The notes: generated from the sequence alone by a model not told the origin. Numbered from the stretch's first letter, positions 14,847 to 56,999 are shown. The stretch is 64,000 nt of DNA from Gemmatales bacterium (GCA_039809045.1 JBDHUG010000012.1:5586-69585); one strand, 5' to 3'. Translations and numbers: made by a program.

Positions 14847-14900
14847 GCGTGTCTTGTGCTCGCGTCGCTTGTTTTTGTTTCAATCCCATCATCAGGCAGG

Positions 14901-18795: not shown

Positions 18796-18807
18796 CGATA
18801 ACCCAAC

Positions 18808-22265: not shown

Positions 22266-22799
22266 ATGCCTATTCAATTTCGCTGTGGCAATTGCAAACA
22301 ACTCCTAGGCATCGCCCGACGCAAGGCAGGCGCGGTGGTTGCATGCCCGACTTGTGGTGGAAAAACCATCGTTCCAAGAACCCCAGAGAACGGCTCATCG
22401 TTAGAGCCCAATGAAGGCAAAAAAGGTCATGCTGCTGCCCCTAAGCCTGGTTCGTTTTCGTTGCTTGAACGCGTCGATGTCGAAAAATTGCTGAGCAATC
22501 CCATCAATCAGCCATCCGCACCAGCAGGCGGTGGCAAGGCGGCCATTGCTGATCCCTTAGAGATGAAAGCGCTGCCCGCTGCTTCGGCGACTGTTCAACC
22601 GAATGCCGCTAAGCCGGCTTCGATACCGTTGATTCCCATCGATGATGACGATGATGTGCCAATGGCCTTGTCCGAGTTGGCACAACCGCCAACGTTATTC
22701 CGTGTCACACCTGCACGAGCCATTTTCATGCTTTTCGTGTTTTTGCTCAGTGTGTCAGGTAGCTTTCTGCTAGGCATGTGGGTTGGATCATTAAAATAA
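22266..22799 (+). CDS. zinc-ribbon membrane protein, function unknown
   Basis: N-terminal CxxC...CxxC (CGNCKQ...CPTCGG), a low-complexity Ala/Pro linker and a C-terminal TM helix. Confidence 0.55.
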   Translation: MPIQFRCGNCKQLLGIARRKAGAVVACPTCGGKTIVPRTPENGSSLEPNEGKKGHAAAPKPGSFSLLERVDVEKLLSNPINQPSAPAGGGKAAIADPLEMKALPAASATVQPNAAKPASIPLIPIDDDDDVPMALSELAQPPTLFRVTPARAIFMLFVFLLSVSGSFLLGMWVGSLK

Positions 22800-22848
22800 G
22801 CGGCCACGATTTCATTACGAAACTGCCCTAAAGCAAAGGGATTCATGG

Positions 22849-25287: not shown

Positions 25288-25494
25288 AGCACACTACCGA
25301 ATCCGTTCATTGCTTCGCTTGATTCTTTGAATCCAATCTTAGTCTTCACGAACGGACTTTACAAAGCTGTTACATTCATTTCTCGTCGATCCCGTTAGAA
25401 TGGGATCGTTGCTGCATGGTCAGCAAATCATCCATAGACACAGCGTGAAACACGCATGAAGTACCTTGTGTATTTTTTTGGGAAAGGAAGAACC

Positions 25495-27294
25495 ATGAAT
25501 CGTCGTAGTCTTTTTGTATTAGCGTGGTTGATCACAACCCCGATTTGGGTTTATTGCAGCGAACCCAAGATCATCACTAAAGAAACCACCAGCCGGATCG
25601 TCAGCGTGACGGTTTACCGCACGAACGCATTGATTACACGTGAAGTCGATGTTCCGGAGGGAATTGGCACTTTTGAATTGGAAATCAAAGGCTTGCCACA
25701 CGCTGTTCAGCATGAATCGCTTTATTCGGAAGCTTTAAATGGCACGCGCATTCTGGCCACGCGTTCCCGAACCAGGGTCGTCGCTGAAGACACCCGCGAA
25801 GAAGTGCGCACATTGCAGAATAAACTGAAAGAACTGCAAGCCATCAGCGACCGCATGCAAAGCGAAATCACCACACTCGAGCAAAACATGCAAACCTTGA
25901 CAAAGCTAGAAGCCTTCACGGCGGCCACCTTGCAGCAAATCACCGACAAAGGCTTGATGAACAGCGAAGCCACCATCAAATTAGCGGAGTTCATCATGAA
26001 CACCCGCAAACAACGAGCAGCCGATGTCGTGACCTTGAAACAACAAAAAGCTACCAATCAAGAGCAGATCGATTTTACCCAACGGCAATTAAAAACGGTC
26101 TCAACGCGTGGAGGACGGACTGAAAATGATGCGATCATCGTTGTAGATAAAGTTGGCCAGGCTGCAACCAAAGTCCGTCTCAATTATTTGGTAACGAATG
26201 CCACTTGGAATCCTCAATACAAATTGCGTGCACAGAAAATGACAGAACCGGTGCAGTTGGAGTATTTGGCCGCTGTGGCACAAGACACGGGTGAAGATTG
26301 GAACAATGTTCAGCTCATCTTATCAACGGCACAACCGATGCTGAATGCTGCTCCCCCCTCCTTGAAAAAGCTGGAAGTGACCGTTGCTCCGGTCATCACG
26401 ACAAGAGTTCCAGCACCTCAAACGGCAGGCCAGGCGGGTCCTGTCAACTACAAGCAACTTGAAATGCAATCCCAGCAATTACGCGGCAAAGCCCAGATGG
26501 AATACAATGCCAATCGAGCATGGGATGCGACAAAGTCGATTAACGACGCTGCAGCCCTGGAGCAATGGTGTGATATCGCCATGCTTCGCGACCAAGAGCC
26601 ACAACGTTTGGAAGAGCAAGACGATCAAAGCACCAGCTTTAAAGAAGGCCCCACGGTTACGTACACGCTTGCTTCGCGTCTGAGCATTCCTTCACGACAA
26701 GACGAGCAAGTGTTGCAAATCACCCGGATTGATCTTGCTCCTGACTTTTACTACAAGGCAGTGCCTGTGCTGACTTCGCATGTCTATCGCCAGGCGAATC
26801 TCGTCAATAAAAGCGATTACGTTCTATTACCAGGCGAAGCAACGATGTATTTCGGAACAGACTTTGTCGGTCGCACCGCTTTGCCCCTCGTGGCCATCGG
26901 CGAGCAGTTCACGGCTGGTTTCGGTGTTGACCCCCAATTGCAAGTACAACGCCGCTTGATTGATAAATCCAAGACCATGCAGGGTGGCAACCAGGTTCAG
27001 CGTTTTGATTACCGCATACTTGTTAATAGCTACAAAGCCCAAGCGATTAAGCTGCAAGTTTGGGATCGCCTGCCTTATTCTGAAAACCAGAATGTTGCTG
27101 TCACTTTGGTGAATCAAACGCCAGACTTGAGTAAAGATCCTTTGTACCTGCGCGAAGAGCGCACCAAGAATCTCTTGCGCTGGGACGTCACGGTCGACCC
27201 CAATACCAACGGCGAAAAGGCGCTGGCGATCAACTATCAATTCAAAGTGGAATTGGATCGGCAAATGCAATTGAGTGCATTTACCACGAAGTAG
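25495..27294 (+). CDS. DUF4140/DUF4139 family protein (TIGR02231-like), function unknown
   Basis: ATG at 25495 is preceded by AAGGAAG. Signal peptide, an N-terminal '..VTVYRTNALITREV..' block, a central coiled-coil, and a C-terminal '..LLPGEATMYFGTDFVGRTALP..' block typical of the family as I recall it. Confidence 0.75.
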   Translation: MNRRSLFVLAWLITTPIWVYCSEPKIITKETTSRIVSVTVYRTNALITREVDVPEGIGTFELEIKGLPHAVQHESLYSEALNGTRILATRSRTRVVAEDTREEVRTLQNKLKELQAISDRMQSEITTLEQNMQTLTKLEAFTAATLQQITDKGLMNSEATIKLAEFIMNTRKQRAADVVTLKQQKATNQEQIDFTQRQLKTVSTRGGRTENDAIIVVDKVGQAATKVRLNYLVTNATWNPQYKLRAQKMTEPVQLEYLAAVAQDTGEDWNNVQLILSTAQPMLNAAPPSLKKLEVTVAPVITTRVPAPQTAGQAGPVNYKQLEMQSQQLRGKAQMEYNANRAWDATKSINDAAALEQWCDIAMLRDQEPQRLEEQDDQSTSFKEGPTVTYTLASRLSIPSRQDEQVLQITRIDLAPDFYYKAVPVLTSHVYRQANLVNKSDYVLLPGEATMYFGTDFVGRTALPLVAIGEQFTAGFGVDPQLQVQRRLIDKSKTMQGGNQVQRFDYRILVNSYKAQAIKLQVWDRLPYSENQNVAVTLVNQTPDLSKDPLYLREERTKNLLRWDVTVDPNTNGEKALAINYQFKVELDRQMQLSAFTTK

Positions 27295-27334
27295 CCAAAC
27301 GGCCCCGTAAGCAAAACCTTACGTTATAATAGGA

Positions 27335-27366
27335 GCAGGTCCCTGACGCGCGGGTCAAGGACCTGC
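27335..27366 (+). terminator. GC-rich hairpin between the DUF4139 gene and the response regulator (terminator or attenuator)
   Basis: 12 paired positions (GCAGGTCC-C-TGAC / GTCA-A-GGACCTGC) with a 6-nt loop. It lies 41 nt after the stop at 27294 and 19 nt before the ATG at 27385. The downstream T-tract is weak (CTTCCATTC). Confidence 0.5.
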
Positions 27367-27384
27367 CTTCCATTCGGGTGAATT

Positions 27385-28119
27385 ATGAACAAACGACGTG
27401 TGGTGGTTGTTGAAGATGATCCAGCCATTCGCCGAGGTGTTTGCGATGCCTTGACGTTGTCTGGCTACGAGTCAGTCCCCGCCGTCGATGGTGACGAAGG
27501 TTTAACCAAAGCCACCACGCCTGGAGTCGATTTAGTTCTTCTTGATTTGCAGTTGCCCAAACGGGATGGGCTTGATGTGCTTGTGGGCTTACGTGAGCAG
27601 AAGCCGACGATACCCGTCATAATTCTGACGGCACGAGGTACGGAAGATGATCGCGTCCGTGGCTTGCAATTGGGTGCGGATGATTATGTCGTAAAGCCGT
27701 TTTCAGCGCGTGAATTGCTAGCTAGGGTGGAAGCCGTGTTGCGGCGCAGTTTACATGCCAGCGATGAATTGCAAACCGCCAAATGGGGCAGGCTCACCAT
27801 TGATTTTACGGTACGCAAGCTCATTCGCTCGAAACAATCCAGTGAGGATATGTCGGAAACCGAAGCCATTTTACTGCATTACTTGCTGTCCCAACGCCAA
27901 CGGGTGGTGAGCCGAGAAGAATTGCTAAGCAGGCTTTGGGGCATGAACGGCAAAGACATTGAAACCCGTACCATCGACATGCATATTGCACGGTTGCGCG
28001 GCAAACTTCGTGAACTCTCAGGCCGCACAGAATCAGAAGCCATCATCACTGTCCGTGCACAAGGATACATGGCTGGCCCAGACTGGATCATTTCTGATAG
28101 TGAGGGAACCTCCTCATGA
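27385..28119 (+). CDS. OmpR/PhoB-family response regulator
   Basis: Receiver domain (VVVVEDD...LVLLDLQLP...K) plus a winged-helix output domain (..IDMHIARLRGKL..). The stop overlaps the kinase start by 4 nt. Confidence 0.9.
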   Translation: MNKRRVVVVEDDPAIRRGVCDALTLSGYESVPAVDGDEGLTKATTPGVDLVLLDLQLPKRDGLDVLVGLREQKPTIPVIILTARGTEDDRVRGLQLGADDYVVKPFSARELLARVEAVLRRSLHASDELQTAKWGRLTIDFTVRKLIRSKQSSEDMSETEAILLHYLLSQRQRVVSREELLSRLWGMNGKDIETRTIDMHIARLRGKLRELSGRTESEAIITVRAQGYMAGPDWIISDSEGTSS

Positions 28120-29996
28120 ATCGAAAACTGAAAATCCGCGGCAAGGCCTGGCTTGGTTTCCTGGCCATCAGCTTGCTCGTCACCGGCGGACTCGCTTGGG
28201 CCACTTACATGGCTCTCGAAGTGGAACATGACCAGCGCACGAGCCGAGCTATCAATGAACGTAATCAAAAGTTGCGTCTGGCCCTTTGGCGGCTTGATAG
28301 CCGCGTTTTTCCGGTGCTGGCCCGTGAGGCCAATCGACCCTTCCAACATTACCGGGCCTTGTATTCCACTTCTCAAACATTAATACGCCAGGGCAAATCC
28401 TGGCGCGCGGGCGAAGCATTACAACCTTCCCCCTTGCTGAATGAACCTCTGCCCAAATGGGTGCTGCTTCATTTTCAGGTTTCAACACAAGCTGTACCGA
28501 TCATGTGGGAATCGCCACAGGTTCTCAATGAAGTCGATATGGCCTGTCTGAATGCCAATCCCATTCTGACCACATGCGAAAATGTCACTGGCGAGCGCAA
28601 GCAAGTCTTTCAACGCTTGCAACAACGATTGAAAACCGATTTGCTTCAGACTTGGATGAACGCACAAATACCGCTATTGGCACTCGAGCCGCCAATTCAA
28701 ACGGTTGTCGATAAACCCGTCACCCCCCAAGTGTCGAATAACGACCAGGTCAACGAGACGCCGCCGCAGCAATTTGTGCCTAGCCAACGCGGTTCCATGG
28801 ACCAGGAATTCCAGAGCCGCTTTAATCAAAAAGCGCAGATCGAACAGCTCCAAGGCAATCGATCCAACTACAAACAATCCGCCAATGCGCTGAACCTGCA
28901 CGACACCACCACGATTCGCATGGGAGTGATCCAACCCCTGTGGCTCCCGAACGAACAAACGACACAACCGGATACCTTGTTGATGACCAGGTTAGTACAA
29001 TTAGGCTCAGAGTACTATTGCCAAGGGTTTGTCCTCGATTGGCCCGTATTAGCCAAGGAATTGGCTGAAAGTGTTCAAGACCTGTTTCCACAAGCTTCCC
29101 TTGCAGCCATACGCACTGAAATACCAGAACGTCCCGAACAAACGATGACGGCCTTGCCGTTGGAGTTGCTACCCAACGAACCTATTTCCACTCATGCGCA
29201 AGAAACATGGTCCCCCATGCGCATCAGTCTGCTTTTAGCCTGGTGTGCGGCTGGGCTGGCTTTGCTGGCCGTGGGCTTGGGCGGTTGGTCTTTGCTCGAA
29301 CTTTCCGAACGCCGTATTCGGTTTATCTCAACCGTCACCCATGAATTACGAACCCCATTAACGACGCTGCGTTTATATTCCGACATGCTCACCAATGGCC
29401 TGATCAAGGATGAAGAAAAGAAGACCGAGTATTTATCGACTCTGCATCAAGAGGCTGAGCGCTTGCATCGTTTGATTGCCAACGTTCTCGATTATTCCCG
29501 ACTCGAAAACCACTCGTTGAAACTGGAACGCAAATCCATGCCAGCACAACAGATTTGCGACCATATCATGCAAGCATGGAAAGACCGCTGTGAGCAAGCC
29601 GACAAACAATTAACCTTGGAAGCCGCGACAGAAGACTTACAAGCAATGGTTCATACCGATCCGGTTCTGGTCGAACAGATCCTCGGCAACTTGATCGACA
29701 ATGCATGCAAATATAGCCAAAAGGCAGGCGACACACGCATTTGGCTGCGTGTCACTCAGGATCGCAACCAGGTTTACTTTCTGGTCGAAGACCACGGTCC
29801 GGGCATCCCCCTGGCCGAACAGAAAGCCATCTTTCAGCCATTTCAACGAGGCAAGACGGTGGATGTTACCTCCGCAGGTGTCGGTCTTGGGCTGGCCCTG
29901 GCTAGGCGTTGGGCACACCTCCTAGGGGGCCATTTGCATATCCTGACCAGCAAACATGGGTGCGGCGCTTGTTTTCAATTAGCAATACCAAAGTAA
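28116..29996 (+). CDS. sensor histidine kinase (HisKA + HATPase_c) with large unassigned periplasmic domain
   Basis: Two TM segments flank a domain of roughly 340 aa. H-box VTHELRTPL, N-box NLIDNACKY, G-boxes EDHGPGI and GVGLGLA. Confidence 0.9.
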   Translation: MNRKLKIRGKAWLGFLAISLLVTGGLAWATYMALEVEHDQRTSRAINERNQKLRLALWRLDSRVFPVLAREANRPFQHYRALYSTSQTLIRQGKSWRAGEALQPSPLLNEPLPKWVLLHFQVSTQAVPIMWESPQVLNEVDMACLNANPILTTCENVTGERKQVFQRLQQRLKTDLLQTWMNAQIPLLALEPPIQTVVDKPVTPQVSNNDQVNETPPQQFVPSQRGSMDQEFQSRFNQKAQIEQLQGNRSNYKQSANALNLHDTTTIRMGVIQPLWLPNEQTTQPDTLLMTRLVQLGSEYYCQGFVLDWPVLAKELAESVQDLFPQASLAAIRTEIPERPEQTMTALPLELLPNEPISTHAQETWSPMRISLLLAWCAAGLALLAVGLGGWSLLELSERRIRFISTVTHELRTPLTTLRLYSDMLTNGLIKDEEKKTEYLSTLHQEAERLHRLIANVLDYSRLENHSLKLERKSMPAQQICDHIMQAWKDRCEQADKQLTLEAATEDLQAMVHTDPVLVEQILGNLIDNACKYSQKAGDTRIWLRVTQDRNQVYFLVEDHGPGIPLAEQKAIFQPFQRGKTVDVTSAGVGLGLALARRWAHLLGGHLHILTSKHGCGACFQLAIPK

Positions 29997-30107: not shown

Positions 30108-33100
30108 TTATCGCTGGGGCGGAGCTACTTCCCTTATCTGAGCACCATGCTTTTCACTCAAAATGAGCAAGGCAAAGCGCTGGATGGGTTTAAGCTCAGG
30201 AGTGCTCACCGAGGCATAATCAAAGCGGCCCCGCAAATCCGTATAGCCATCCTTGTAGAACTTGACTTCGCCGTCAGCGTAACGAGCGTACACTTTGACA
30301 TATACTTTCGGCAATGATTGATTATTCGTTGTTGTCATCACGCGTAATTGCCCATAGTTCTCATTCATGACCACATTCATGGCGTTGGAGACATAGGGCA
30401 AACTCCGCGTTTTGCCTGCTGCTTGAATTTCTACCATGACATTGCGCTGTGTCAGATGAGTCGGCAAGGGAACATCTAATTTTTGTTTGCCACCTGGTAA
30501 TTGAACGATTTGCGTTTCGTTCGGTTTGATGGATATGAACTGGCCAGTCGCTTGTTGCGTGAATGGATTGCGACTGAACAGCAATTCGACGTCCATTAAA
30601 TAGTAGTTGATGCGCACTGATTCGAGATTCTGCCAGGTCATCTGAATGGTCTTGGCATCGATCGCAAAATCGAAACTCGGTTCCTTGGAAGCCAAATGAG
30701 TTTGCTGCTGATCGCGATCTTCAGGATTGGTTACCTTGCCGGCTTTGCCTTCGATTTCATCCAGTTGGCTCACAATGGCGGCAAAGGCGTTCCGCCAGCG
30801 ATCAACCGGATGCTTCAAGTAGTTGGTCGCAATCGCTCGAGCCTTGGTGGGCAGATCATGATACATGTCCATATAGGCAGCACAGTAGTCATACTGAATG
30901 CGGGTGGTCAATTGGTTAGGATCGATCTTGGCAAACTCTTCGAAGGCCTCGGCAATACGATCCTGCAAGAGCAAGTAATAACAAACAGCCAGCCGATGCT
31001 GATCTTGCAGCGTGCTCTTGTAGCTCAGCAGCTTCAAGAAACTTTCGTATTGTTCATGAAATCGTTTGTTGACGATCTGTCGCCGTGCACCCAAAGCATG
31101 TGCACGCGCATTGACCAGGGGTTTGTATTCCAAGTGTTCATACAGATGCCGCTTTTCCAAATCCAGCTGCAGCAAGGGACTTTGAATGGGACCGCTGCAT
31201 TCCTGAATGATTGTGTCGTTCATGGATAGGAATTGCTGAATCAGCGATGGTGCATTGTGATAGATGCTATAGGACCATAGCGTTGGGTTATACACATGCC
31301 TGCTGTCCAGATACTTCACAACCGTCTCAAAAAAGGCTCGATCGCGCATGCGGAACGCCATTTTGTCCAACTGAATCGTGTTGAGGTTTTCGCGTGTTAG
31401 CATCGCCAACACATCTTCATTCGAACCAAATTGAGAGACATAATCCCACGAAGTGGTATCCAGCTTGCTTGGCTTCGTCACGACTTTGAAAGTAAAAGGT
31501 TGTGTAAAAGCCATGAGCACTTCGTTTTTGGCCACGTGGACAGGGTAGTGCTGGAATGTACCGGCAAACGGAAAATAGAACAGGTAATCGATCGTCTTGG
31601 TGTGGTAGGGTTCTAAATCAAGTAAAACCGTTCGTGTGTATTGGCTTTGCTCAACGGGCAGCGCGCCGATGGGCAACTGCCATAATACCGCCAATTTTTG
31701 CCTAGTGGGCGAAGGATTCGTGACCACCACCTGACAGCCATAAACCGTCTGAATAACGAATTCGTCCGTTATGAATTTATCGAGCTGCTCGCCGTTCTCG
31801 ACGCGATAGCGGTCGCCATGGCGATAGAAGTTTTGACTCACGAGGATCGTTGTTGGAGCCTGGCCTGCTTGCGTTGGGCGAACCTCCTCATGAAATGCAA
31901 CCACGGGCGAAGCTGCGGTAAAGGTCATTCGCTGACCTTCGTATTTCACTTCATGTTTACCTGGTTCAAATGGCACATCCAGCACGGATAGGGCAAGCAT
32001 CATTTCCGAAAAGCTGCCAGCAACCTCAGCCAAATGACGTGATAAAAATGGGTTTCGACCGTCATGCTTAACAAAATCCAGCCAGAATGGGTTCACCTTG
32101 ATCAAATCAGCGATCTGCATCGCCAAGGGGACTTGGTAGTAGTGATTCTCTGCCCATTCCTGGGTAGCATCCAGGCGACGGTAAAGTTGCTGTAGTTGTC
32201 GACGAGCACGTTCATTGCTGTAGAAATAAGCGTCTTGCTGTGGAGCCTCTTTGAGCGCTTTATCCTCTGGCACGGTAGCTCCCGAACGCGTCTTCGATGC
32301 ATCCCCTTTTTTGAGAGAATCGACTTCCTCTTTGCCCTTTTCCTTCATATCCTTCAGCCCAGATCCGCGACCTCCACCGCCAAGCCCCCCCGCACCGCCT
32401 GCGATACCAGAGGTTGGTGCTGTTGGAGCGTTCATTTGGACTTTGTTAGACTGTTCATCCCGTTTGTTTTTCCTTAATTCTTCCATCAATTCCGGCTTAG
32501 GCGCATGGACCGGCATGCCTAACCGTGTTTCGACATCCAAAAGGCTCCCTTGAACGGCGGTGTTAAACAACACTTGGAACCGCTCCAAATTGGGGGGTTG
32601 TAGCCGATAGAGATCATTCATGTAGCGTTCTGTCTTAGTCATTTCTCCGACAATCCGTTGTGCCAACAAGACACGCTCGACGGTATTGAGCCGATCAAAC
32701 GCCCAAGGTTGAAGGAATTCGTTCAAATCCATCTCGAGCAACCACATATCCATGAACGTCTTGTGCTTCTTGTTCGCCAAATAGGGTTTGACTACGTTCT
32801 GGAAGAAGGGTGGATCCTTCTTGTAAATAAAGAAGTTCAATTCATGGCAGGCATACTTTGAATACAGGGAGTGCTTCTCTTCGGTCTTGAGTTTGGGCCA
32901 GCCAAGAATGAAATTGAATTCGACAAGTGTCGTGTTGTGCGACAACGTGTTATACAACCCATAAACTTTGGGCAGACTGTCGTACACTTCAAATCGACTG
33001 GACAGCACGTCGGCTATGACCAATGTCTGCTTAGGTCCAAGCACACTGATCTGCTTTTGCTGGGTAAAGTGGGCTTTGGGGTCTAATCCTTGTTTCATAC

Positions 33101-36100
33101 GCTGGTCGATGATTTTGATGGACGTTTCGGGCAATACGATCGTCCTGGTCAGAGTGTGCAATGGATCAACCACGACCGCTTGGATCGTGGAGTGGTTTCC
33201 AAGATCCTTGCGTTTGATTTTGATCGTTCCATCTTTTTCGGGGATCAGATTCAGCAGTACGGCCGAGGAATCTGCCAGAAAATCCAAATTAGCAAAGTCG
33301 CCAGCCAAAATTGGCCCCGTTGGCCGGGTCGAGGTGCGGGGGGCTAGAGGGGCTTGTGGCTTGCCTGGTCCTTTGGGCTCGAAATCCGTGCCGCCGGTTA
33401 CGGATTGTTCCGTGGTTTCGGTCGAACGAACGGCCCAAGGGTTCAGCAATAATGATGGGCGATCTAGCATATTCCCAGGGTACGTGGTTTGCAACTTGCG
33501 ATCGAGCACGTATCGATATTCGTCGCCAATATCGCGACCCGTCAAATACATCGAAAGAGCCATCGAAGGGCGAAATGTATCCAGTTCCGCATCTCGTACT
33601 TTGCTGAGATTAGCAAATGCCGAAAATGCTGGCTTATACCTAGAAGCCAGCAAATGCACCCGCGTGAACGGCGAGGTTTCGCGGAGTGTGATGACCAGTT
33701 CTTCTTCATTGGCACTCATGTTGCTGATTCGCGGTGGTTTAAGTCCGGTTTGGCGAGCGAATCGAGCATGGCCTAACCAATGACCAGCCGAGTTTTCACC
33801 GGCTACCACGCGTATCCAAACGGTCTGATTGTCCTGCTTGAGCGTCAGTTGATAATCGCCTGGAGTCAATCCCGATATTTCCAAGGCGCCTTTGTTGATC
33901 GCTAGGGCAGCAAGGCGATCAGCATAATACACTGCGCCGCGCAGTTCGAAAAATGCGAACTCCGAACGCGTAATTTCTTGCGCTCGACCCAAATAGGGCA
34001 GTTGGATGGTCTCGCCAACACCCGCATGTACGATCTGTCGGTAGGTAAATTGATTTTTGGGCAAGCTCCAGGTGTGGGATACGGCATCGGCATTGGTTAC
34101 CTTGATGTAATCAATATCGTTCAATTCACCCAGTAGAATTCTACCTTTGTCATCACTCTTCAAGGTAACGTCAATAGGTTCTCTGAAATCACGATGTTTA
34201 ATGCTGAAATAAACAATCCGATCGACGCGTTCTTCGCCGGTCTTGCCTCGAAGCTCCAGCACATACGTGGTTCCATATTGAGCCAAGTGCATATCTTCGA
34301 TCTTGTTCGACTTATCAATTTCATTGAGCGAAAAGGTTTCTTGCGCTGATAAGTCGATCTTCTTGTCTTGACTCAGGCTTTTTACTTTGGCATGCAGGGC
34401 CACAGTCAAGTGGGCCAGGCGAGGCGGTACCCGAAATTCGTGAGTTGTTTCACGATCTTCAAAAAGCTTGAAATCGCGTATTTCCGAAGTGGTCGCAATG
34501 CCGTCCTGGTCGATGGCTGTCAAAACAAGCCGTGCCTCTTCCAGCAATTTCAGCGAGATGGGTATCTGATTCAACATGAGGCCAGGTCGCAGAATGAGTT
34601 GGGCCATCCTTTGACTTAACAAGGATTCCCGATCAACGTAAAAGCCGGCTGCCAGTTGGTAGTTCTCGGCTTGGTGATTCAGATATTCCAGACAAGCAAA
34701 GTCCCCTTGCTGAATCACGATGGGTTGTCGAGAGGGGTTGGTGCTGAACGGAACCAATATGGAGCCATCTTTTTCAGCATGATATTCCTGGCCGCCGATC
34801 CATAAGGATGCATCCGTCACAAGTTGTCTTGCATCATTGATCACTTGTACCACGTGCCCCGCTGGCGTCAGAGAGACGAGCGGTCGCAAACTCCCTTTGC
34901 GAATAAGCGCCCGGCTGCTTTTGCCGCTGCCGATGAAATCAATGACGTAAACACCCGGTTTGGATAGTTCCGGGAAAGTGAATTGTCGGGGCATTCGACG
35001 AAGTGGCGGCTCGGCAAATTTCTCCGTTCTTTCCGCATTGGGAATGAGGCCATCCAGATTGATGTCGGTGTCTACTTCTTGTTTATGTTCCCGATAATAA
35101 TTCGACGTGTTGATTTCATAAATCTTGATGATCAAGGTTGGCACGTTCTTCACAAGCAAATGCAATTGCACAGGCTCATTGGCTTTGAAATGAGTCTTGT
35201 TCGTCGAATCAAAGTCGATGTCGACTCGTTCTTTTAAGGAACGGAACACTTCCGGCGGTAATTGCGATGCCCATTGTTCCGCATCGCCTAAGCCGTTTTC
35301 AATTTTTGTTTCAGCGAATAAATGTCGCAGATAAACATCGTTGATGTAAGGTGTGAATTCTTGAGGCGAACTGGCGTTGACCAGAAAGTGTTTGAGATAA
35401 TCGCGAACCAACGGTTCATCGAAACCAACGGGGGCCAGCTTCGTGAATTCTGTGAAGTTTGCATTCAGATCAACGGGATATTGGCGAGCTTGCAGCGATT
35501 CTAACATGCTTTTGGACATGTAGTGCTGTTGGCGGGGCAATTGCAAGTATTCCAAAAACAGCGATCGATCATAATTGCCCAAACTGCGATCCAACAACAA
35601 ACGATGATACAAAACATGGGCTTTCAAGTTATTATGAACCGGCGCTAAGCGGCGAACAAAAGTGAGCATGCGATCAAGATAGGCTTTGAGTAGCTCAGGT
35701 TCATAACGCCAGTTTTCATCTGCGTTTGGTTGCAAGCGAAGTAAGATATTCTGAACAAAAACCGTTTGATTGAGCAAGTCGGGCCGTAAGCGCAACAGTT
35801 CTTCATGTTGAGCCAAGGTCAGTTTTCGATGTATGGCATATTGGCCAAAGGGTACCGCATGCTCCGCTTGCATATCAGCGGCGATCATTTGCGGCAAATT
35901 CGGCAGATCGGGAAGTTGGGCTTGCTGCAAAAGCTGCCTGCGACGTTCCCAGTTCAGGTTTTCTTTAGCCAACCAATCAAAAGACGACGGTTCAAAATTC
36001 TCGATAAATCGCCAACGTTGAAATGAGTTAGCTTTCAATGTTTCGCGAGCGATCAATTGTGGATTCAAGGATGTTGGCAAATTCGGAACATCACTGATCA

Positions 36101-36458
36101 AGCTACGTTCATGGTTGAAACTTAGCCCCAATCGATGTCGCAAATAGTCCAGAGTTCGTTGCTGATTTAAGGTATAGGTTAGTAAGGCGTAACGTGTTTG
36201 AATCTCATGCAATCGCTGGGTTTCTCCATGACGTTCCAGCCAAAGACGCGTCATTGGTTCAATCTTTGAAAATTGCTCTGTATTTAAATAATGCAAGCAA
36301 TGAAAGTAGTAATAGTCTTCTGTGCCCGGGATCAACTGTTTCAGGCTTTCAGCTCGATCTTTAGCTAACGCAAAATCTTCGATAAAACCGATCTCATCGG
36401 CCACGCAGGGCAGTATGGAAATTAGCAACATCAGACTAACGATGGCCAATCGACGCAT
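30108..36458 (-). CDS. giant secreted protein (2116 aa), no recognisable family
   Basis: Uninterrupted 6351-nt ORF with GAGG 7 nt upstream of the ATG. Signal peptide MRRLAIVSLMLLISILPCVA|DE. Helical N-terminal part, beta-sandwich-like modules, a Pro-rich linker, a Gly/Lys-rich disordered segment (nt 32232-32435) and a large C-terminal part. Confidence 0.9.
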   Translation of the reverse strand: MRRLAIVSLMLLISILPCVADEIGFIEDFALAKDRAESLKQLIPGTEDYYYFHCLHYLNTEQFSKIEPMTRLWLERHGETQRLHEIQTRYALLTYTLNQQRTLDYLRHRLGLSFNHERSLISDVPNLPTSLNPQLIARETLKANSFQRWRFIENFEPSSFDWLAKENLNWERRRQLLQQAQLPDLPNLPQMIAADMQAEHAVPFGQYAIHRKLTLAQHEELLRLRPDLLNQTVFVQNILLRLQPNADENWRYEPELLKAYLDRMLTFVRRLAPVHNNLKAHVLYHRLLLDRSLGNYDRSLFLEYLQLPRQQHYMSKSMLESLQARQYPVDLNANFTEFTKLAPVGFDEPLVRDYLKHFLVNASSPQEFTPYINDVYLRHLFAETKIENGLGDAEQWASQLPPEVFRSLKERVDIDFDSTNKTHFKANEPVQLHLLVKNVPTLIIKIYEINTSNYYREHKQEVDTDINLDGLIPNAERTEKFAEPPLRRMPRQFTFPELSKPGVYVIDFIGSGKSSRALIRKGSLRPLVSLTPAGHVVQVINDARQLVTDASLWIGGQEYHAEKDGSILVPFSTNPSRQPIVIQQGDFACLEYLNHQAENYQLAAGFYVDRESLLSQRMAQLILRPGLMLNQIPISLKLLEEARLVLTAIDQDGIATTSEIRDFKLFEDRETTHEFRVPPRLAHLTVALHAKVKSLSQDKKIDLSAQETFSLNEIDKSNKIEDMHLAQYGTTYVLELRGKTGEERVDRIVYFSIKHRDFREPIDVTLKSDDKGRILLGELNDIDYIKVTNADAVSHTWSLPKNQFTYRQIVHAGVGETIQLPYLGRAQEITRSEFAFFELRGAVYYADRLAALAINKGALEISGLTPGDYQLTLKQDNQTVWIRVVAGENSAGHWLGHARFARQTGLKPPRISNMSANEEELVITLRETSPFTRVHLLASRYKPAFSAFANLSKVRDAELDTFRPSMALSMYLTGRDIGDEYRYVLDRKLQTTYPGNMLDRPSLLLNPWAVRSTETTEQSVTGGTDFEPKGPGKPQAPLAPRTSTRPTGPILAGDFANLDFLADSSAVLLNLIPEKDGTIKIKRKDLGNHSTIQAVVVDPLHTLTRTIVLPETSIKIIDQRMKQGLDPKAHFTQQKQISVLGPKQTLVIADVLSSRFEVYDSLPKVYGLYNTLSHNTTLVEFNFILGWPKLKTEEKHSLYSKYACHELNFFIYKKDPPFFQNVVKPYLANKKHKTFMDMWLLEMDLNEFLQPWAFDRLNTVERVLLAQRIVGEMTKTERYMNDLYRLQPPNLERFQVLFNTAVQGSLLDVETRLGMPVHAPKPELMEELRKNKRDEQSNKVQMNAPTAPTSGIAGGAGGLGGGGRGSGLKDMKEKGKEEVDSLKKGDASKTRSGATVPEDKALKEAPQQDAYFYSNERARRQLQQLYRRLDATQEWAENHYYQVPLAMQIADLIKVNPFWLDFVKHDGRNPFLSRHLAEVAGSFSEMMLALSVLDVPFEPGKHEVKYEGQRMTFTAASPVVAFHEEVRPTQAGQAPTTILVSQNFYRHGDRYRVENGEQLDKFITDEFVIQTVYGCQVVVTNPSPTRQKLAVLWQLPIGALPVEQSQYTRTVLLDLEPYHTKTIDYLFYFPFAGTFQHYPVHVAKNEVLMAFTQPFTFKVVTKPSKLDTTSWDYVSQFGSNEDVLAMLTRENLNTIQLDKMAFRMRDRAFFETVVKYLDSRHVYNPTLWSYSIYHNAPSLIQQFLSMNDTIIQECSGPIQSPLLQLDLEKRHLYEHLEYKPLVNARAHALGARRQIVNKRFHEQYESFLKLLSYKSTLQDQHRLAVCYYLLLQDRIAEAFEEFAKIDPNQLTTRIQYDYCAAYMDMYHDLPTKARAIATNYLKHPVDRWRNAFAAIVSQLDEIEGKAGKVTNPEDRDQQQTHLASKEPSFDFAIDAKTIQMTWQNLESVRINYYLMDVELLFSRNPFTQQATGQFISIKPNETQIVQLPGGKQKLDVPLPTHLTQRNVMVEIQAAGKTRSLPYVSNAMNVVMNENYGQLRVMTTTNNQSLPKVYVKVYARYADGEVKFYKDGYTDLRGRFDYASVSTPELKPIQRFALLILSEKHGAQIREVAPPQR

Positions 36459-36887
36459 TGGAGACCTCGCGCAAAATTAGGATGATTCACACTTTTGACC
36501 GAATCCAGCGGCACAGCACTCCGGTTTTTCTGAAAATGTAGCGACCGTTTGGTTCGCTCCAAAGCCATAATGATAGACGAACGCCGTTGGAAAATCGATT
36601 TGCATCGAGTTACAAAAAGACAATAAACGTAAAACTCGCTTTTAAATCGTTTATGTACTTATTGATCTTAAACAGATAGGTCGCCCTGTAGTTGAGACGG
36701 TGAATGAATAGATGCAACAATGCCCTTGGATATTCGAGCCGAATTTTTGAACGGAGCTGAAATATCTGCCCAATACGGAATTATTACGACATTACTGTGG
36801 CAAAATCCTCAGCACAGCCTTCATTGCAATCGCTTGAAAGATAAAATGTACGTGGTTGTGAATGACATGCCGTTTGCAACTACATAA

Positions 36888-38084
36888 ATGGAACGTTTTA
36901 TGTACCCACTAAAACTCATTCTAATCGGTTGTAGCGAAACGACGCGACTTGAAATTCACCGTGAAGCTGCGAACCATGCAGCAACGGTCGATGCTGAGTT
37001 TCCAGACGCTCGTGCAGCAATGGGTCGGATACATCCTACGCCTGAACAAAAGCCGCTTTTTATCATCGAAGTGCGCCAAAGCGAAGACATCCTGGAAATC
37101 GAAAAAATCAATAATACGCTTATCGGCTGCCCTGTTTTAGCTCTCATTAACGTGAATAATAACTTTGACTTGGTATTTCAAGCCATGCGAGCTGGTGCAT
37201 CGCAAGTCGTTCCATTGCCCATTCGCCCGCATGACCTTGAGAACGCAATGTCGAGATTGCTCCGGCAATTTGGCGTATTGGATAACGAAAGCAAATTAAT
37301 CGCTGTTTGCGGAGTTAGCGGAGGAACCGGTGGAACCACACTGGCGATTAATCTGGCGTATGAGTTGGCGCACACGCAGCAACATTCGACCATCTTGCTT
37401 GAGCTGGGCCAACAAGTCGGCAAACTTGCCGTTTGTTTAGACCTTAAACCACGGTTTTCGACGCATGATTTACTCAACGATATATCGCGCATGGACCTGA
37501 ATTTGATACGCGATTATCTGTATCCCTATGACGCACACTTACAGATTCTTGCAGGCCCCTATCTCACGAGTCAGGTGCAAACTTACCCAATAGCCGATGT
37601 CGTTCATATGCTAGAATACCTTCGGCGATTAGCGCACATTATTGTCGTGGACATCCCATTTGCGGTAGACGATACTTTTTATGCGGTCATGGCGGCTGCC
37701 GACGAGATTGTGCTAGTAACCGAACAGAAAGTCCCTTCACTCCATTCGCTCATCTTGGCAAGGCAAGGTCTGGAAGAAAAAGGGGTTATGGGACATCAGC
37801 ATATCGTCGTCAATCGATATAACTCGGCATCGGAAATAAACCTGGATTATTTGCACAAACTGACTAACGTGGAAAAGATCTTCACCATACACAATGATTA
37901 CTCCGCCATAAGCGAAGCAATCAACAAGGGCAGACCACTACGAGTCCATGATGCACATTGCACTGCTTTAAAAGATATCCATAACCTTGTTCAATACATT
38001 CTGAGTCCGCGTGAACCAGCCAGCGCCAAACCTCAAGAACACCACAAAGGCTTTTGGCATATGGCTAAGAAACTATTGCATTAA
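36888..38084 (+). CDS. TadZ/CpaE-like protein (pseudo-receiver + degenerate ParA/MinD-type ATPase domain)
   Basis: The N-terminal receiver-like fold lacks the acidic pocket (GCSE.. and ..FIIEVRQ). The P-loop region reads GVSGGTGGTT (nt 37311-37340) instead of KGGxGK[ST]. An alternative ATG lies at 36900. Confidence 0.65.
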   Translation: MERFMYPLKLILIGCSETTRLEIHREAANHAATVDAEFPDARAAMGRIHPTPEQKPLFIIEVRQSEDILEIEKINNTLIGCPVLALINVNNNFDLVFQAMRAGASQVVPLPIRPHDLENAMSRLLRQFGVLDNESKLIAVCGVSGGTGGTTLAINLAYELAHTQQHSTILLELGQQVGKLAVCLDLKPRFSTHDLLNDISRMDLNLIRDYLYPYDAHLQILAGPYLTSQVQTYPIADVVHMLEYLRRLAHIIVVDIPFAVDDTFYAVMAAADEIVLVTEQKVPSLHSLILARQGLEEKGVMGHQHIVVNRYNSASEINLDYLHKLTNVEKIFTIHNDYSAISEAINKGRPLRVHDAHCTALKDIHNLVQYILSPREPASAKPQEHHKGFWHMAKKLLH

Positions 38085-38156: not shown

Positions 38157-39629
38157 TCAGCAAGCCAGCATCACTCGTTTACGAAACATATCAGGGGAGA
38201 AATGAATGCCAGCCGCGCGGATTTTCACGTCATAGTGAGAATTGATGCCTGCCATTTCAAAATGGCCAACGGCTTTGCCTTGCGAATCAATGCCTGTCTG
38301 TTTATAGATCATCAGCTCTTGGGTAACGATGGTATCTTGCTCCATTCCAACGATCTCTGAAACAGAAGTTACTTTGCGAAGCCCGCCGATTAATCGATCG
38401 ACTTGGATGACGAGATTGATGGATGATGCTATTTGTTGACGCATGGCTTTCAAAGGTAGATCAAGACCGCTCATCATGATCATCATTTCCAATCGGCTCA
38501 ATGCATCGCGGGGGCTGTTCGCATGCAAAGTCGTCATTGAGCCTTCATGACCCGTATTCATTGCTTGAAGCATATCCAGTGCTTCCGGACCTCGACATTC
38601 ACCCACAATAATTCGATTAGGGCGCATACGCAGCGCATTCCGGACAAGATCACGAATGGTCACTTCGCCTTTGCCTTCAATGTTCGGCGGTCTGGATTCG
38701 AGCCGCCCGACGTGCACTTGCTGCAACTGCAATTCGGCTGCGTCTTCAATCGTTATGAGTCGCTCATGGGCTGGGATAAAACTGGAAAGGGCATTGAGCA
38801 GGGTCGTTTTACCGCTTCCCGTTCCTCCACTTACCAAGATGTTCAATTTTCCTTTCACGGCACCGTCGAGAAATTGAACGATTTCAGGCGTTAAGGCCTT
38901 CAAGGCAATCAAATCGGGGATCCGGAGGGGGCGAACGCCAAACCTGCGGATACTCACCATGGGCCCAACCAACGACAGGGGCGGTATGATGGCATTGAAA
39001 CGTGACCCATCGGGCATGCGTGCATCAACCATCGGTGATGACTCATTCACCCGACGCCCGACACGTGCGACAATCCGTTGGATGATTTCTATCAGCTGAT
39101 CGTCATTTCGAAACGTAACGCCGCTTGGCTCGAGAATACCACGCCTTTCGACATATACTTGCTTGGCCCCATTGACCAGAATATCGCCAATGGTCGGATC
39201 GCGAAGCAGTTTCTCGAGGGGACCAAAACCAAGGATATCATCCAATAAATCATCGATGAGTTCTTTGCGCTGGGCAAAGGTAAGCGGCTGATGGGCATGG
39301 GTATCAATCAATTGTTCCAGGGCAAATCGGATTTCCGTACGTCTTTGCTCTTCTGGAAATCGATTGATTTCTTCGGGCTTGATATTATTGACAAACACAT
39401 TGTGTATCGTTCGCTTCAAGTCCTCTAAAGTTTGGTCCGTTGCTGAAACCGGCACAACGCCACTCGCAACGTTTGCAGGGCTGGATGCACTCCCGATGGG
39501 TTCAGCAGCAGCGATGTTTCCACTCGGCTCCGGCTCCGCTGCTATTTCCTTCTCGGTCTGCTGATTGACCGCTTCTTTCGCCTTTTTCTTTTGTTCTTCT
39601 AGTTCTTTGATGAAATCATTAAGTTCCAT
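38157..39629 (-). CDS. cpaF: CpaF/TadA-family type II/IV secretion ATPase
   Basis: Walker A GGTGSGKTTLLNAL, Asp-box/Walker B and His-box regions (..IIVGECRG..,..GHEGSMTTLHAN..). The N-terminal low-complexity extension is typical of CpaF. Confidence 0.9.
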   Translation of the reverse strand: MELNDFIKELEEQKKKAKEAVNQQTEKEIAAEPEPSGNIAAAEPIGSASSPANVASGVVPVSATDQTLEDLKRTIHNVFVNNIKPEEINRFPEEQRRTEIRFALEQLIDTHAHQPLTFAQRKELIDDLLDDILGFGPLEKLLRDPTIGDILVNGAKQVYVERRGILEPSGVTFRNDDQLIEIIQRIVARVGRRVNESSPMVDARMPDGSRFNAIIPPLSLVGPMVSIRRFGVRPLRIPDLIALKALTPEIVQFLDGAVKGKLNILVSGGTGSGKTTLLNALSSFIPAHERLITIEDAAELQLQQVHVGRLESRPPNIEGKGEVTIRDLVRNALRMRPNRIIVGECRGPEALDMLQAMNTGHEGSMTTLHANSPRDALSRLEMMIMMSGLDLPLKAMRQQIASSINLVIQVDRLIGGLRKVTSVSEIVGMEQDTIVTQELMIYKQTGIDSQGKAVGHFEMAGINSHYDVKIRAAGIHFSPDMFRKRVMLAC

Positions 39630-39874: not shown

Positions 39875-39886
39875 TTGTTTAAACAA
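39875..39886. promoter_or_regulatory. perfect 12-bp palindrome TTGTTTAAACAA upstream of the MarR gene (candidate operator)
   Basis: The sequence is self-complementary over 12 bp and ends 48 nt upstream of the MarR ATG at 39935, in the 305-bp gap shared with divergent cpaF. Confidence 0.5.
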
Positions 39887-39934
39887 TTAAAATATGGTGA
39901 TGCTGTAATACTGCTTTCCTGGAATAAACGCCGC

Positions 39935-40411
39935 ATGCACTTTGATTCCATTGCCCAAAAGGCTTTTATCAATCTGTGGCGAACCTACGATCGGTTACGC
40001 CAGTTAGAAGCGCGACTGTTCGACCGTTTCGAACTTACCGCACAGCAATACAACGTTTTAAGGATACTCAATGCCAAATATCCAGACCCCGTCCCCACTC
40101 TCCATCTCGCTGAACGTTTGATCTCGGCTGCACCCGATATCACGCGCATCGTTGATAAACTCGAAAAGCAAGGGCTGATCAGTAGAACTCGCACGCAGCA
40201 TGATCGCCGTTCCGTTTTGATTCATATTACAAAGGCTGGCCGAGCTAAACTGAGCCAGATTCAACGCCCTCTGCGGCAATGTCATGAACAACAACTAGGA
40301 CATCTAACCAAAAAACAACTTGTACAATTAACCAACCTGTTACGCCGAGCGCGACAACCCCATGAGAACGCAACCAGTCCATGGCGTGTTGAAAGGAGCG
40401 ACGATAGATGA
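39935..40411 (+). CDS. MarR-family transcriptional regulator
   Basis: ATG at 39935. Winged-helix block (..LTAQQYNVLRIL...ITRIVDKLEKQGLISRTRTQHDRRSVLIHITKAG..). The stop overlaps the next gene start by 4 nt. Confidence 0.85.
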   Translation: MHFDSIAQKAFINLWRTYDRLRQLEARLFDRFELTAQQYNVLRILNAKYPDPVPTLHLAERLISAAPDITRIVDKLEKQGLISRTRTQHDRRSVLIHITKAGRAKLSQIQRPLRQCHEQQLGHLTKKQLVQLTNLLRRARQPHENATSPWRVERSDDR

Positions 40412-41682
40412 CTCCATCCATTCCCAGCAACACCGAAGTCGTGGTCATCGGTGGCGGACCTGCGGGTTCCACAGCTGCTACCCTCATTGCTGAGCAGGGT
40501 CGCCGGGTAACTCTTTTTGAGCGTGAGCATTTTCCGCGTTTCCATATCGGCGAATCGTTGATTCCCGAAACGTATTGGGTCTTACAACGCTTAAAATTGA
40601 TTGAACCCCTGAAACATGGACATTTCGTTAAGAAGTATTCCGTGCAATTCATCACCGAACATGGCAAGCTTTCCGAACCTTTTTACTTCTGGGATCACAA
40701 GCCTTATGAATCATCACAAACCTGGCAAGTACGTCGTGATGAGTTTGACACCATCTTGCTTAACAATGCGCGGCAAAAGGGGGCGGATGTGCATGAAGGC
40801 GTGCGTGTGCTCAATGTGATCTTTGATGGCAATAAGGCAAAGGGCGTTCGCATCAAGACCACTAATGGTCAAGAAAAGGATGTCATGTGCCAAGTGGTAG
40901 TCGATGCTAGCGGCATGAGCACCGTCCTCATGGATCGTTTGCAATTACGACAATGGGACCCGGATTTAAAAAAGGCAGCCGTTTGGACCTATTGGAAGGG
41001 CGCCAAGCGCGACCAAGGCCGCGACGAAGGAGCAACCCTCGTGATTCAAACCGAGGGTAAGCGCGGCTGGTTCTGGTACATCCCGCTGCACGATGATGTC
41101 GTCAGTGTCGGCGTGGTCAGTTCAGAGCAAGATTTGTTCAAAGAACAAGGCAGCAAAGATCTCGAGAAGATCTACTTTGACCAAGTTGCCAAATGCCCAG
41201 GGCTTCAGCCGCGCTTGCAAGGTGCCACGCGTTGCGACATTTTTCGGGCACAAAAAGAGTATTCTTATCGAGCACGCCAAATCGCGGGCGATGGCTGGGT
41301 CTTGGTTGGTGACGCATTAGGTTTTCTCGATCCGCTCTACTCCTCTGGCGTCTTGCTGGCTTTGGTTTCTGGTGCGAAAGCAGCAGATGCTGTCGTGGAG
41401 GGATTAAGCAAGCACGATGTCTCAGCCCGACAACTGGGCTGCTGGTCGGAGGAGTACATCAAGGGCATGAACCGCATGCGACGTCTGGTATGTGAATTTT
41501 ACAATGGCTTTAGCTTTGGCCAGTTCATCAGACGTCATCCACACCTGAAAGGCTATATCACCGACATGCTGATCGGTGATCTTTACAAGGATGAACTAGA
41601 CCAATTATGGCCGCTCATGGATGCCATGCGTGCTGAACTAAGTTCAGAACAAGCGACGATGCTTGAATCCGCCACGGCCTAA
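40408..41682 (+). CDS. flavin-dependent halogenase-like FAD oxidoreductase
   Basis: GxGxxG (VIGGGPAGS), FPRFHIGESLIP block, a candidate catalytic Lys region (GHFVKKYSVQF), WxWxIP motif (WFWYIP, nt 41068-41085) and GDALGFLDPLYSSGV. Confidence 0.7.
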   Translation: MTPSIPSNTEVVVIGGGPAGSTAATLIAEQGRRVTLFEREHFPRFHIGESLIPETYWVLQRLKLIEPLKHGHFVKKYSVQFITEHGKLSEPFYFWDHKPYESSQTWQVRRDEFDTILLNNARQKGADVHEGVRVLNVIFDGNKAKGVRIKTTNGQEKDVMCQVVVDASGMSTVLMDRLQLRQWDPDLKKAAVWTYWKGAKRDQGRDEGATLVIQTEGKRGWFWYIPLHDDVVSVGVVSSEQDLFKEQGSKDLEKIYFDQVAKCPGLQPRLQGATRCDIFRAQKEYSYRARQIAGDGWVLVGDALGFLDPLYSSGVLLALVSGAKAADAVVEGLSKHDVSARQLGCWSEEYIKGMNRMRRLVCEFYNGFSFGQFIRRHPHLKGYITDMLIGDLYKDELDQLWPLMDAMRAELSSEQATMLESATA

Positions 41683-41695
41683 CTCTCAACATTGA

Positions 41696-54842: not shown

Positions 54843-54899
54843 GTTTAACCTCCTCGATGTGTACTAAGCATCTGCCCTCCGAAGAGCGAGATGAAAAGC

Positions 54900-55691: not shown

Positions 55692-55693
55692 CT

Positions 55694-56986: not shown

Positions 56987-56999
56987 GGCCAGGTTCCTT

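Follow-up and report, generated by a model that had tools for sequence, protein, structure and literature searches.

The window analysed here is a stretch of 64,000 nucleotides from a Gemmatales bacterium (GCA_039809045.1, JBDHUG010000012.1:5586-69585). On its minus strand, at 30108..36458, is found a gene for a protein of 2116 amino acids (aa), which its full-length homologues place almost certainly in the CAGE family, described in 2025 (bioRxiv 10.1101/2025.09.22.677704). The observations as a whole are very probably explained if the protein is a bacterial CAGE, most likely a hollow tetramer of the periplasm. The initial annotation, made from the sequence of the window, had taken it for an orphan of new function with no assignable family. 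With 1,810 homologues (E <= 1e-3 in a search of 5.8 billion proteins) and its CAGE membership, the protein is no orphan. Both a structurally characterised family and a neighbourhood that is not conserved were found, and these speak in part against the view first proposed.

The following background on CAGE proteins is taken from the preprint (bioRxiv 10.1101/2025.09.22.677704). Eukaryotic CAGE is a hollow ellipsoidal homotetramer of ~1 MDa, for which a cryo-electron microscopy structure from Dictyostelium at 3.3 Å is reported, and the structures are deposited as PDB 11KS and 11KT. The cavity measures ~18 x 8 x 8 nm (~600 nm3) and has slit-like openings. Tetrahymena CAGE1-3 (CAGE1 is I7MLD7) and Dictyostelium AbpF/DDB_G0291229 (XP_635154.1) are ~1,900-2,400 aa long. 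CAGE1 consists of 15 domains without a Pfam or SCOP match: domains 1-2, 11, 13, and 14 are helical, domains 3-8 are beta-sandwiches, and the remaining ones, including the C-terminal domain 15, are beta-sheet. Domains 3, 8, and 9 are assembled from distant segments, and for some of domains 3-8 alpha-2-macroglobulin (A2M) is the top Foldseek match. Over two thirds of the 3,521 CAGE homologues found by BLASTP come from bacteria, with the highest prevalence in Planctomycetota and Verrucomicrobiota; CAGE is also found in many unicellular eukaryotes. Eukaryotic CAGEs are soluble, intracellular, and lack a signal peptide. Most bacterial CAGE proteins have signal peptides of 21-22 aa. According to the preprint, CAGE has no conserved enzymatic motifs or cofactors, and no substrate density was seen in the cavity.

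The evidence for CAGE membership comes from Table S2 of the preprint, whose BLASTP query is the Dictyostelium CAGE XP_635154.1. Three homologues of the window protein, whose accessions were obtained independently, are listed in that table as hits of nearly full length:

P0101, WP_213494470.1, Telmatocola sphagniphila: E = 0, identity 31.55%, query cover 0.83
P0059, WP_088253768.1, Fimbriiglobus ruber: E = 9e-156, identity 29.65%, query cover 0.87
P0110, MFO0808573.1, Gemmataceae bacterium: E = 0, identity 27.61%, query cover 0.92

Each of the three aligns with the window protein from end to end (100% of its length) at 54-55% identity (E = 0). Full-length homology to the characterised CAGE is thus found by a transitive comparison through three listed homologues. 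Judged in the same way, the window protein and eukaryotic CAGE are only ~28-32% identical. Dictyostelium CAGE and Tetrahymena CAGE1 and CAGE2 exceed the window protein by ~100-300 aa, whereas CAGE3 is shorter than it.

The domain architecture agrees with this assignment. The structure was predicted by AlphaFold2 (AF2) as two halves, from alignments of 51 sequences. The N-half model (aa 21-1030) has a mean predicted local distance difference test score (pLDDT) of 81.9 and a predicted template modelling score (pTM) of 0.74; for the C-half model (aa 1050-2116) these are 73.6 and 0.46. The blocks of the models follow one another as helical, beta-sandwich array, linker, beta, helical, disordered, helical, two beta, two helical, and two beta, which is the published order of the CAGE1 domains with an offset of ~30-90 residues. 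CAGE proteins and the window protein are thus alike in length, in the order of helical and beta-sandwich domains, in a disordered insert at the equivalent place, in the lack of Pfam domains, and in beta-sandwiches with A2M- or Ig-like fold matches. The absence of Pfam, SCOP-type, and PDB sequence matches together with Ig/A2M-like Foldseek matches is what the preprint reports for CAGE1. The features of the gene and of its product, from the start of the gene to its end, are as follows:

30108..36458, minus strand: complete CAGE-family gene (open reading frame, full-length homologues, and three homologues in Table S2 of the preprint)
36465..36468, minus strand: GAGG Shine-Dalgarno-like motif 6 nt before the ATG, read directly in the sequence
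36399..36458, minus strand: signal peptide of Sec/signal peptidase I (SPase I) type, aa 1-20, with predicted cleavage between CVA and DE (pattern conserved in 26 homologues)
35229..36395, minus strand: N-terminal all-helical region, aa 22-410, corresponding to CAGE1 domains 1-2 (AF2 pLDDT mostly 85-97)
33681..35222, minus strand: beta-sandwich array, aa 413-926, five complete sandwiches and a sixth begun, corresponding to CAGE1 domains 3-8 (AF2 strand pattern)
33384..33590, minus strand: conserved segment, aa 957-1025, of low model confidence in the isolated N-half (column identity 0.75-0.86; pLDDT <50)
33309..33383, minus strand: linker rich in Pro, Gly, and Ala and hypervariable in sequence, aa 1026-1050 (low pLDDT; column identity 0.34)
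32982..33188, minus strand: beta-strand region, aa 1091-1159, approximately the second part of CAGE1 domain 8 plus domain 10 (C-half model; mapped by order)
32559..32975, minus strand: first part of a helical domain, aa 1162-1300, corresponding to CAGE1 domain 11 (AF2 helices, pLDDT 85-95)
32184..32558, minus strand: variable disordered polyampholyte segment, aa 1301-1425 (C-half model, column identity, and homologue lengths)
31974..32183, minus strand: second part of the helical domain, aa 1426-1495 (AF2; column identity 0.72-0.86)
31479..31952, minus strand: beta-sandwich pair, aa 1503-1660, corresponding to CAGE1 domains 10b and 12 (AF2 strands, pLDDT ~85-93)
30684..31448, minus strand: two helical domains, aa 1671-1925, corresponding to CAGE1 domains 13 and 14 (AF2; column identity)
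31062..31139, minus strand: conserved loop HLEYKPLVNARAH, aa 1773-1798, among the best-conserved stretches of the family (pLDDT <50 in the isolated C-half)
30126..30677, minus strand: C-terminal double beta-sandwich, aa 1928-2111, corresponding to CAGE1 domain 15 (AF2; weak Pfam matches in relatives)

In the N-terminal helical region, pLDDT dips near aa 115-120, between two helical domains. The conserved segment at aa 957-1025 probably contributes strands to non-contiguous domains, by analogy with CAGE1. The conserved loop at aa 1773-1798, in which P1780 and R1785 are >=97% identical, may have its packing partner in the N-half or in another subunit. The two linkers are the sole poorly conserved parts of the mature protein, with column identities of 0.24-0.39 compared to 0.63-0.93 elsewhere. 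Their position and composition are kept among homologues, but their sequence is not. The Pro-rich linker is of variable length, as the aligned stretch (aa 1024-1052 in the window protein) measures 29-39 aa in homologues, and it lies where a largely unassigned stretch separates the two parts of CAGE1 domain 8. The disordered segment at aa 1301-1425, mostly of pLDDT <50 and 103-166 aa long in homologues, sits where CAGE1 domain 11 splits (1244-1414 and 1519-1559). It consists of ~13% Gly, 14% Ala, 16% K+R, and 16% D+E, with a net charge near zero, and hydrophobic residues make up 18% of it compared to 35% of the whole protein.

Much of what the initial annotation had described in the protein is recovered in these models. 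The Pro-rich linker is real, and the motifs that had been called beta-sandwich-like (PGVYVIDF, TTYVLELRG, PGDYQLTLK, and, in the C-terminal beta block, KVYVKVYARYADGEVKFYKDGYTDLRGRFDY) are all present and fall inside predicted beta-sandwiches. The 68-residue Gly/Lys/Glu-rich segment exists as well, as part of the larger and variable stretch at ~aa 1301-1425. The N-terminus is helical as proposed, only over aa 22-410, which is about one fifth of the protein and not a third. The division into three large ordered parts gives way to alternating helical and beta blocks in the order of the 15 CAGE domains.

Conservation was measured across 112 full-length representatives, each 36-52% identical to the window protein, and positions that are >=97% identical among them are referred to as invariant. 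There are 108 such positions, with four concentrations at aa 501-525, aa 1181-1264, aa 1951-1966 (MDVELLFS), and aa 2053-2081. The first is a family-wide conserved patch within the beta-sandwich array (G502, G510, G512, S515, R516, and G522). The second belongs to the central helical region, where H1205, E1206, D1215, K1230, D1237, N1258, and E1261 form one of the densest clusters in the protein. The last two are in the C-terminal block, which contains MDVELLFS and a transthyretin/CarboxypepD_reg-like motif, KDGYTDxRGxFDY; aa 2051-2100 hold 12 invariant positions, of which ten lie in the stretch from Y2053 to Y2081. From what is known of the transthyretin/CarboxypepD_reg fold, the conservation of this motif is presumably structural. 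In two relatives (P0052 and P0048), the equivalent of the C-terminal block gives a Transthyretin match that narrowly clears the Pfam cutoff, and an MG4 match below threshold.

The family is widely distributed among planctomycetes. The best 120 of the 1,810 homologues measure ~2,030-2,160 aa. Their best local alignments with the window protein show 53-70% identity, nearly all over 97-100% of the query, and those among them with a named organism are Gemmataceae or other Planctomycetota. When one genome for each prokaryotic species was scanned, at least 544 genome stretches proved to encode a relative. Nearly all of the best 80 are labelled Planctomycetota (e.g., Gemmataceae, Limnoglobus, Fimbriiglobus, Schlesneria, Pirellulaceae, and Anatilimnocola) and encode proteins 45-57% identical over the full length, a spread that also speaks against orphan status. 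This Planctomycetota-rich spread agrees with the distribution of CAGE given in the preprint. Three assemblies have two full-length copies at separate loci (L037 and L039 in OZ245717.1, L018 and L079 in JAIOPV01, and L044 and L047 in JBNJEM01). Four further loci (L006, L016, L058, and L070) are in metagenome-assembled genomes labelled "uncultured Alcaligenaceae" or "Candidatus Kuenenia". The copies in these bins share 49-57% identity with the window protein, which is also the range of the copies labelled Gemmataceae, and judged by this identity the taxonomic labels look doubtful.

Searches against domain and structure databases gave little. Pfam, NCBIfam, and PADLOC scans of the 2116-aa protein gave no match, and phmmer and hmmsearch with a family profile against PDB sequences returned only chance-level matches (E >= 0.23). 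The protein is, as first described, a huge exported multidomain one, and it has no recognisable family match in Pfam, NCBIfam, and the PDB sequences. That CAGE itself is missing from these results is explained by the PDB sets searched, which did not include the entries 11KS and 11KT. With a profile built on the last 691 residues, 3,723 cluster representatives (clusters at 50% identity) were matched, 1,486 at E <= 1e-30. The aim of this search was a link to A2M or eukaryotic CAGE, but the best 150 of the 3,723 are all close bacterial relatives.

The gene itself is an uninterrupted open reading frame (ORF) with an ATG start and 2116 codons plus the stop. The chance of a stop-free run of 2116 random codons is ~(61/64)^2116, or ~1e-44 by our own calculation, and chance is therefore rejected as the origin of the ORF. 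The single 6351-nt ORF and its GAGG ribosome-binding site had been noticed before and are both present in the sequence. Judged by its arrangement, the gene is monocistronic. It lies tail-to-tail with a histidine kinase gene (111 bp) and is divergent from a gene for a BcsQ/ParA-like ("tadZ-like") ATPase (429 bp). A promoter and terminator scan of the window gave fewer sites than in shuffled sequence, and no tRNA or Rfam element was found in the window.

The protein is most likely exported, and its location is most simply periplasmic. Its N-terminus, MRRLAIVSLMLLISILPCVA followed by DE, is arranged in n-, h-, and c-regions like a Sec/SPase I signal. A K/R n-region, a hydrophobic core, and a small-x-small site are seen in all 26 aligned homologues, so that the classical signal peptide of the initial annotation is upheld. 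In these 26 homologues the signal closes with a site of the A-x-A type, and neither a Cys nor a lipobox is conserved there. The mature N-terminus that follows is also strongly conserved (G/A-E/D-I/V-G-F/Y-x-E-D/E-F-A-L). The conserved signal peptide and mature N-terminus therefore point to export, and most simply to the periplasm, where ATP is absent. Judged by sequence pattern, the 20-aa signal-like N-terminus of the window protein corresponds to the secretion signal of ~21-22 aa in bacterial CAGE proteins; in this it differs from eukaryotic CAGEs, which have none. A surface or extracellular location, as had been proposed, does not follow from it: a signal peptide indicates only export from the cytoplasm, and the eukaryotic members are soluble hollow tetramers.

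A bacterial CAGE of this kind is most likely made as follows. The Sec signal peptide would direct translocation of the unfolded chain across the cytoplasmic membrane, upon which the 20-aa signal peptide would be removed. The mature protein would then fold and self-assemble in the periplasm into a CAGE-type tetrameric shell, without ATP and without a dedicated partner gene. More speculatively, the shell might be a passive molecular container or a holdase enclosing periplasmic macromolecules, and the two disordered segments might be flexible elements at or inside the shell.

Several points weigh against the reading as a bacterial periplasmic CAGE. The link to the solved cage is transitive, though it covers the full length and its second step has E = 0 or 9e-156. 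No eukaryotic member is among the matches listed. The tetramer and the compartment of a bacterial CAGE are proposed by analogy, as the cages imaged are eukaryotic only. The C-half was modelled only moderately (pLDDT 73.6, pTM 0.46). The source for CAGE is a preprint that is not peer-reviewed. Against a container or holdase role, which is speculative, the preprint reports that no substrate density was seen in the cavity.

The comparisons drawn in the preprint are GroEL/GroES, vaults, and carboxysome shells. Like CAGE, these are homo-oligomeric shells with a large cavity and a broad phylogenetic spread. CAGE has no sequence or fold relationship with them, however, and it has no ATPase domain, and its cavity is larger and not compartmentalised.

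A different family, A2M, is suggested by database names and by structure comparison. P0059 and P0101 carry the UniRef name "Alpha-2-macroglobulin domain-containing protein". In Foldseek searches against PDB, the top matches of the N-half are CD109, C3, TEP1, A2ML1, and human A2M (E = 2e-11 to 1e-7), and the C-half gives weaker matches (3e-6 to 3e-4) to the C3b alpha' chain and E. coli A2M. Bacterial and eukaryotic A2M/C3/TEP/CD109 proteins are, like the window protein, large and exported, with a long string of macroglobulin-like beta-sandwiches and a flexible, variable internal segment; the variable disordered loop could be compared to the bait region. Human A2M is moreover a hollow homotetramer that encloses other proteins, as CAGE shells are hollow homotetramers. 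That the window protein is a true bacterial A2M, that is, a periplasmic protease trap of the ECAM/YfhM or YfaS type, is very improbable all the same. No A2M-family Pfam domain is found in it, nor in P0059 and P0101 even at E <= 10, whereas the same Pfam search matched 11 A2M-family domains in the positive control, E. coli ECAM (YfhM). The search at E <= 10, run on four named homologues, also gave a weak transthyretin match in the last beta-sandwich, and its sole trace of A2M is a sub-threshold MG4 match in P0048 (E = 0.078, 13.7 bits compared to a cutoff of 24.7 bits). Aligned by hhalign, the family profile and E. coli ECAM give a probability of 0.2%. The TED, CUB, and bait-region domains of Pfam are missing, as is the CxEQ thioester motif (which YfaS-type members also lack). 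No lipobox Cys is conserved in the 26 homologues, unlike in bacterial A2M, which is anchored to the inner membrane by a lipoprotein anchor. While E. coli yfhM adjoins pbpC, no pbpC-like neighbour family recurs across the 84 loci compared.

The structural matches themselves are equivocal. A2M-family members top the PDB list of the N-half (E = 2e-11), but with TM-scores of 0.10-0.19; global TM-scores for the A2M-type Foldseek matches are 0.08-0.19 overall, phage Big-1/FN3/Ig arrays in BFVD score equally well (E = 3e-11), and GH2 enzymes appear in the list for the C-half. About 40% of the protein consists of helical domains, five in number, that have no counterpart in the A2M domain plan. Membership in the A2M family was rejected on the profile, hhalign, motif, and neighbour results together with the phage Ig array control, and the A2M resemblance that remains is probably a generic likeness between beta-sandwich arrays. 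The beta-beta-helical-beta order after the disordered loop could at most tentatively be read as a mimic of MG7-CUB-TED-MG8. No literature on bacterial A2M in Gemmataceae or Planctomycetes was found.

T-T-E-Q at aa 1015-1018 (33405-33416, minus strand), which is T-G-E-Q in most Gemmataceae relatives, was considered as a C-G-E-Q thioester and rejected, as Thr replaces Cys. It is outside any helical domain, and E1017 and Q1018 are not invariant in the family. The likeness to the thioester motif is probably a coincidence.

Foldseek E-values of ~1e-11 are obtained for strings of beta-sandwiches against A2M/C3/CD109 in PDB and against unrelated phage arrays in BFVD alike. Array-level Foldseek matches and names such as "Alpha-2-macroglobulin domain-containing" are not proof of family membership, and such names may rest on this kind of resemblance.

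Apart from the family, two functional readings concern what the shell might do. It is unlikely that bacterial CAGE works in the periplasm as a trap or holding cage without need of ATP, resembling A2M in action while being unrelated to it. If it were one, its cavity would capture foreign or misfolded proteins (e.g., proteases), the polyampholyte loop at aa 1301-1425 would be a bait, a tether, or a gate, and H1205, E1206, D1215, K1230, D1237, N1258, and E1261 would form the functional site. The same seven residues could instead be a cavity-facing catalytic site or a metal- or ligand-binding site, making the shell an enzyme or binding machine, a nanoreactor. That they stay >=97% identical across the 112 representatives, and that their cluster is mostly polar, unlike the equally dense C-terminal cluster, is in favour of such a site. 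No known catalytic motif or family match is present in the protein, however; a motif scan for CxEQ, HExxH, P-loop, CxxCH, LPXTG, GxSxG, and RTX-like motifs found none in the 2116 aa, in line with the lack of catalytic or anchoring motifs recorded in the initial annotation. The preprint reports no conserved enzymatic motifs or cofactors in CAGE either, and invariant residues may equally mark subunit interfaces. The nanoreactor is quite improbable.

As for the genes around it, the CAGE-family gene has no conserved partner, regulator, or operon. The window order MarR, FAD halogenase-like, CpaF-like ATPase, tadZ-like, CAGE, histidine kinase, response regulator, and DUF4139 is kept in a relative with a 70%-identical protein (L003/L004). 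In Telmatocola, in Fimbriiglobus, and on a JGI metagenome contig (P0006), where the homologue is 55-59% identical, this order is absent. When the flanking ORFs of 84 loci were clustered, the tadZ-like, cpaF, histidine kinase, DUF4139, and 826-aa families of the window grouped only with L003/L004. The families of the tadZ-like gene and of the response regulator and histidine kinase pair were seen at none of 79 further loci, and linkage to tad genes is missing at all 81 loci other than the window and L003/L004. The most recurrent neighbour family is a DUF1501-type protein, found at 19 of the 84 loci at variable distances; none exceeds 19. The DUF1501 family is highly expanded in planctomycetes. 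This recurrence is read as background, because the window also encodes another DUF1501 protein elsewhere and the family is so expanded. Operon and partner hypotheses were accordingly rejected. The lack of a conserved neighbour in 84 loci is consistent with a self-sufficient homo-oligomer.

These results also bear on the proposal that the protein is a novel surface or extracellular adhesin-like protein coupled to the tadZ-like/cpaF pair and a two-component system. The signal peptide, the long beta-sandwich array, the divergently oriented tadZ-like gene 429 bp away, and the gene order retained in the 70%-identical relative would all fit it. The coupling does not extend beyond that relative, however: the neighbourhood is lost at 55-59% identity, and so neither the tadZ-like gene as a regulatory partner nor synteny with tadZ-like/cpaF and the response regulator and histidine kinase, as first suggested, could be substantiated. 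The protein has no anchoring, repeat, or RTX motif. Its full length is conserved at ~40-70% identity, unlike fast-evolving adhesin repeats, and its eukaryotic homologues are, according to the preprint, soluble intracellular cages without signal peptides. An adhesin coupled to these genes has hardly any chance of being the right explanation, and the bacterial CAGE remains the preferred one.

The other genes of the window are described here as they stand:

36888-38084, plus strand: the BcsQ/ParA-like ("tadZ-like") ATPase, convergent with the next gene
38157-39629, minus strand: CpaF-type T2SSE ATPase
22266-29996, plus strand: co-oriented genes for proteins of 177 aa and 812 aa without a Pfam match, DUF4140/DUF4139 (612 aa), an OmpR-type response regulator, and the histidine kinase
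39875-45316: MarR regulator, FAD-dependent halogenase-like protein, and a 1206-aa protein with a Pyr_redox_2 match
54231-62602, minus strand: in a row, a cytochrome c/EB_dh protein (560 aa), a molybdopterin oxidoreductase (1154 aa), and a 4Fe-4S dicluster protein (430 aa)
13659-20082, plus strand: a 395-aa protein without a Pfam match, followed by an outer-membrane efflux protein (OEP), an HlyD-like adaptor, and a MacB/FtsX-type permease

The tadZ-like and CpaF genes are an isolated pair and not a tad locus, as no other Tad/Flp pilus genes lie alongside; among the neighbours PADLOC matched only the CpaF-like ATPase, by a marginal P-loop match (E = 6e-4). The block at 22266-29996 is kept as a unit only in the 70%-identical relative. 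That relative also keeps the trio of MarR, halogenase-like, and 1206-aa proteins, possibly a small module for redox or tailoring reactions; the L003 homologue (70% identical) of the 1206-aa Pyr_redox_2 protein is additionally annotated RP005_N. The genes at 54231-62602 form a respiratory-type module, which may be alternative-complex-III-like. Those at 13659-20082 are a tripartite efflux cluster. The gene content of the window is planctomycete-like: besides PSCyt1/PSCyt2/PSD1 with DUF1501, it includes sulfatases and proteins of the DUF1559 type that carry an N-terminal methylation motif.

The gene in the window adds one bacterial copy to a family named in 2025, of which thousands of members are already counted, and its carriage by a planctomycete is expected. 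Its assignment corrects both the "orphan" reading and the misleading "alpha-2-macroglobulin domain-containing" label in databases. What is added for bacterial CAGE is a conserved N-terminus, the lack of a conserved partner gene in 84 loci, some genomes with two copies, disordered segments that are kept in position, and a few places where invariant residues cluster tightly. The CAGE assembly is large, ancient, hollow, and functionally enigmatic, and these bacterial observations narrow its possible function. If bacterial CAGE were indeed a periplasmic trap, planctomycetes would be a natural system in which to solve the function of this ancient cage, since it is there that the preprint finds CAGE to be most prevalent.

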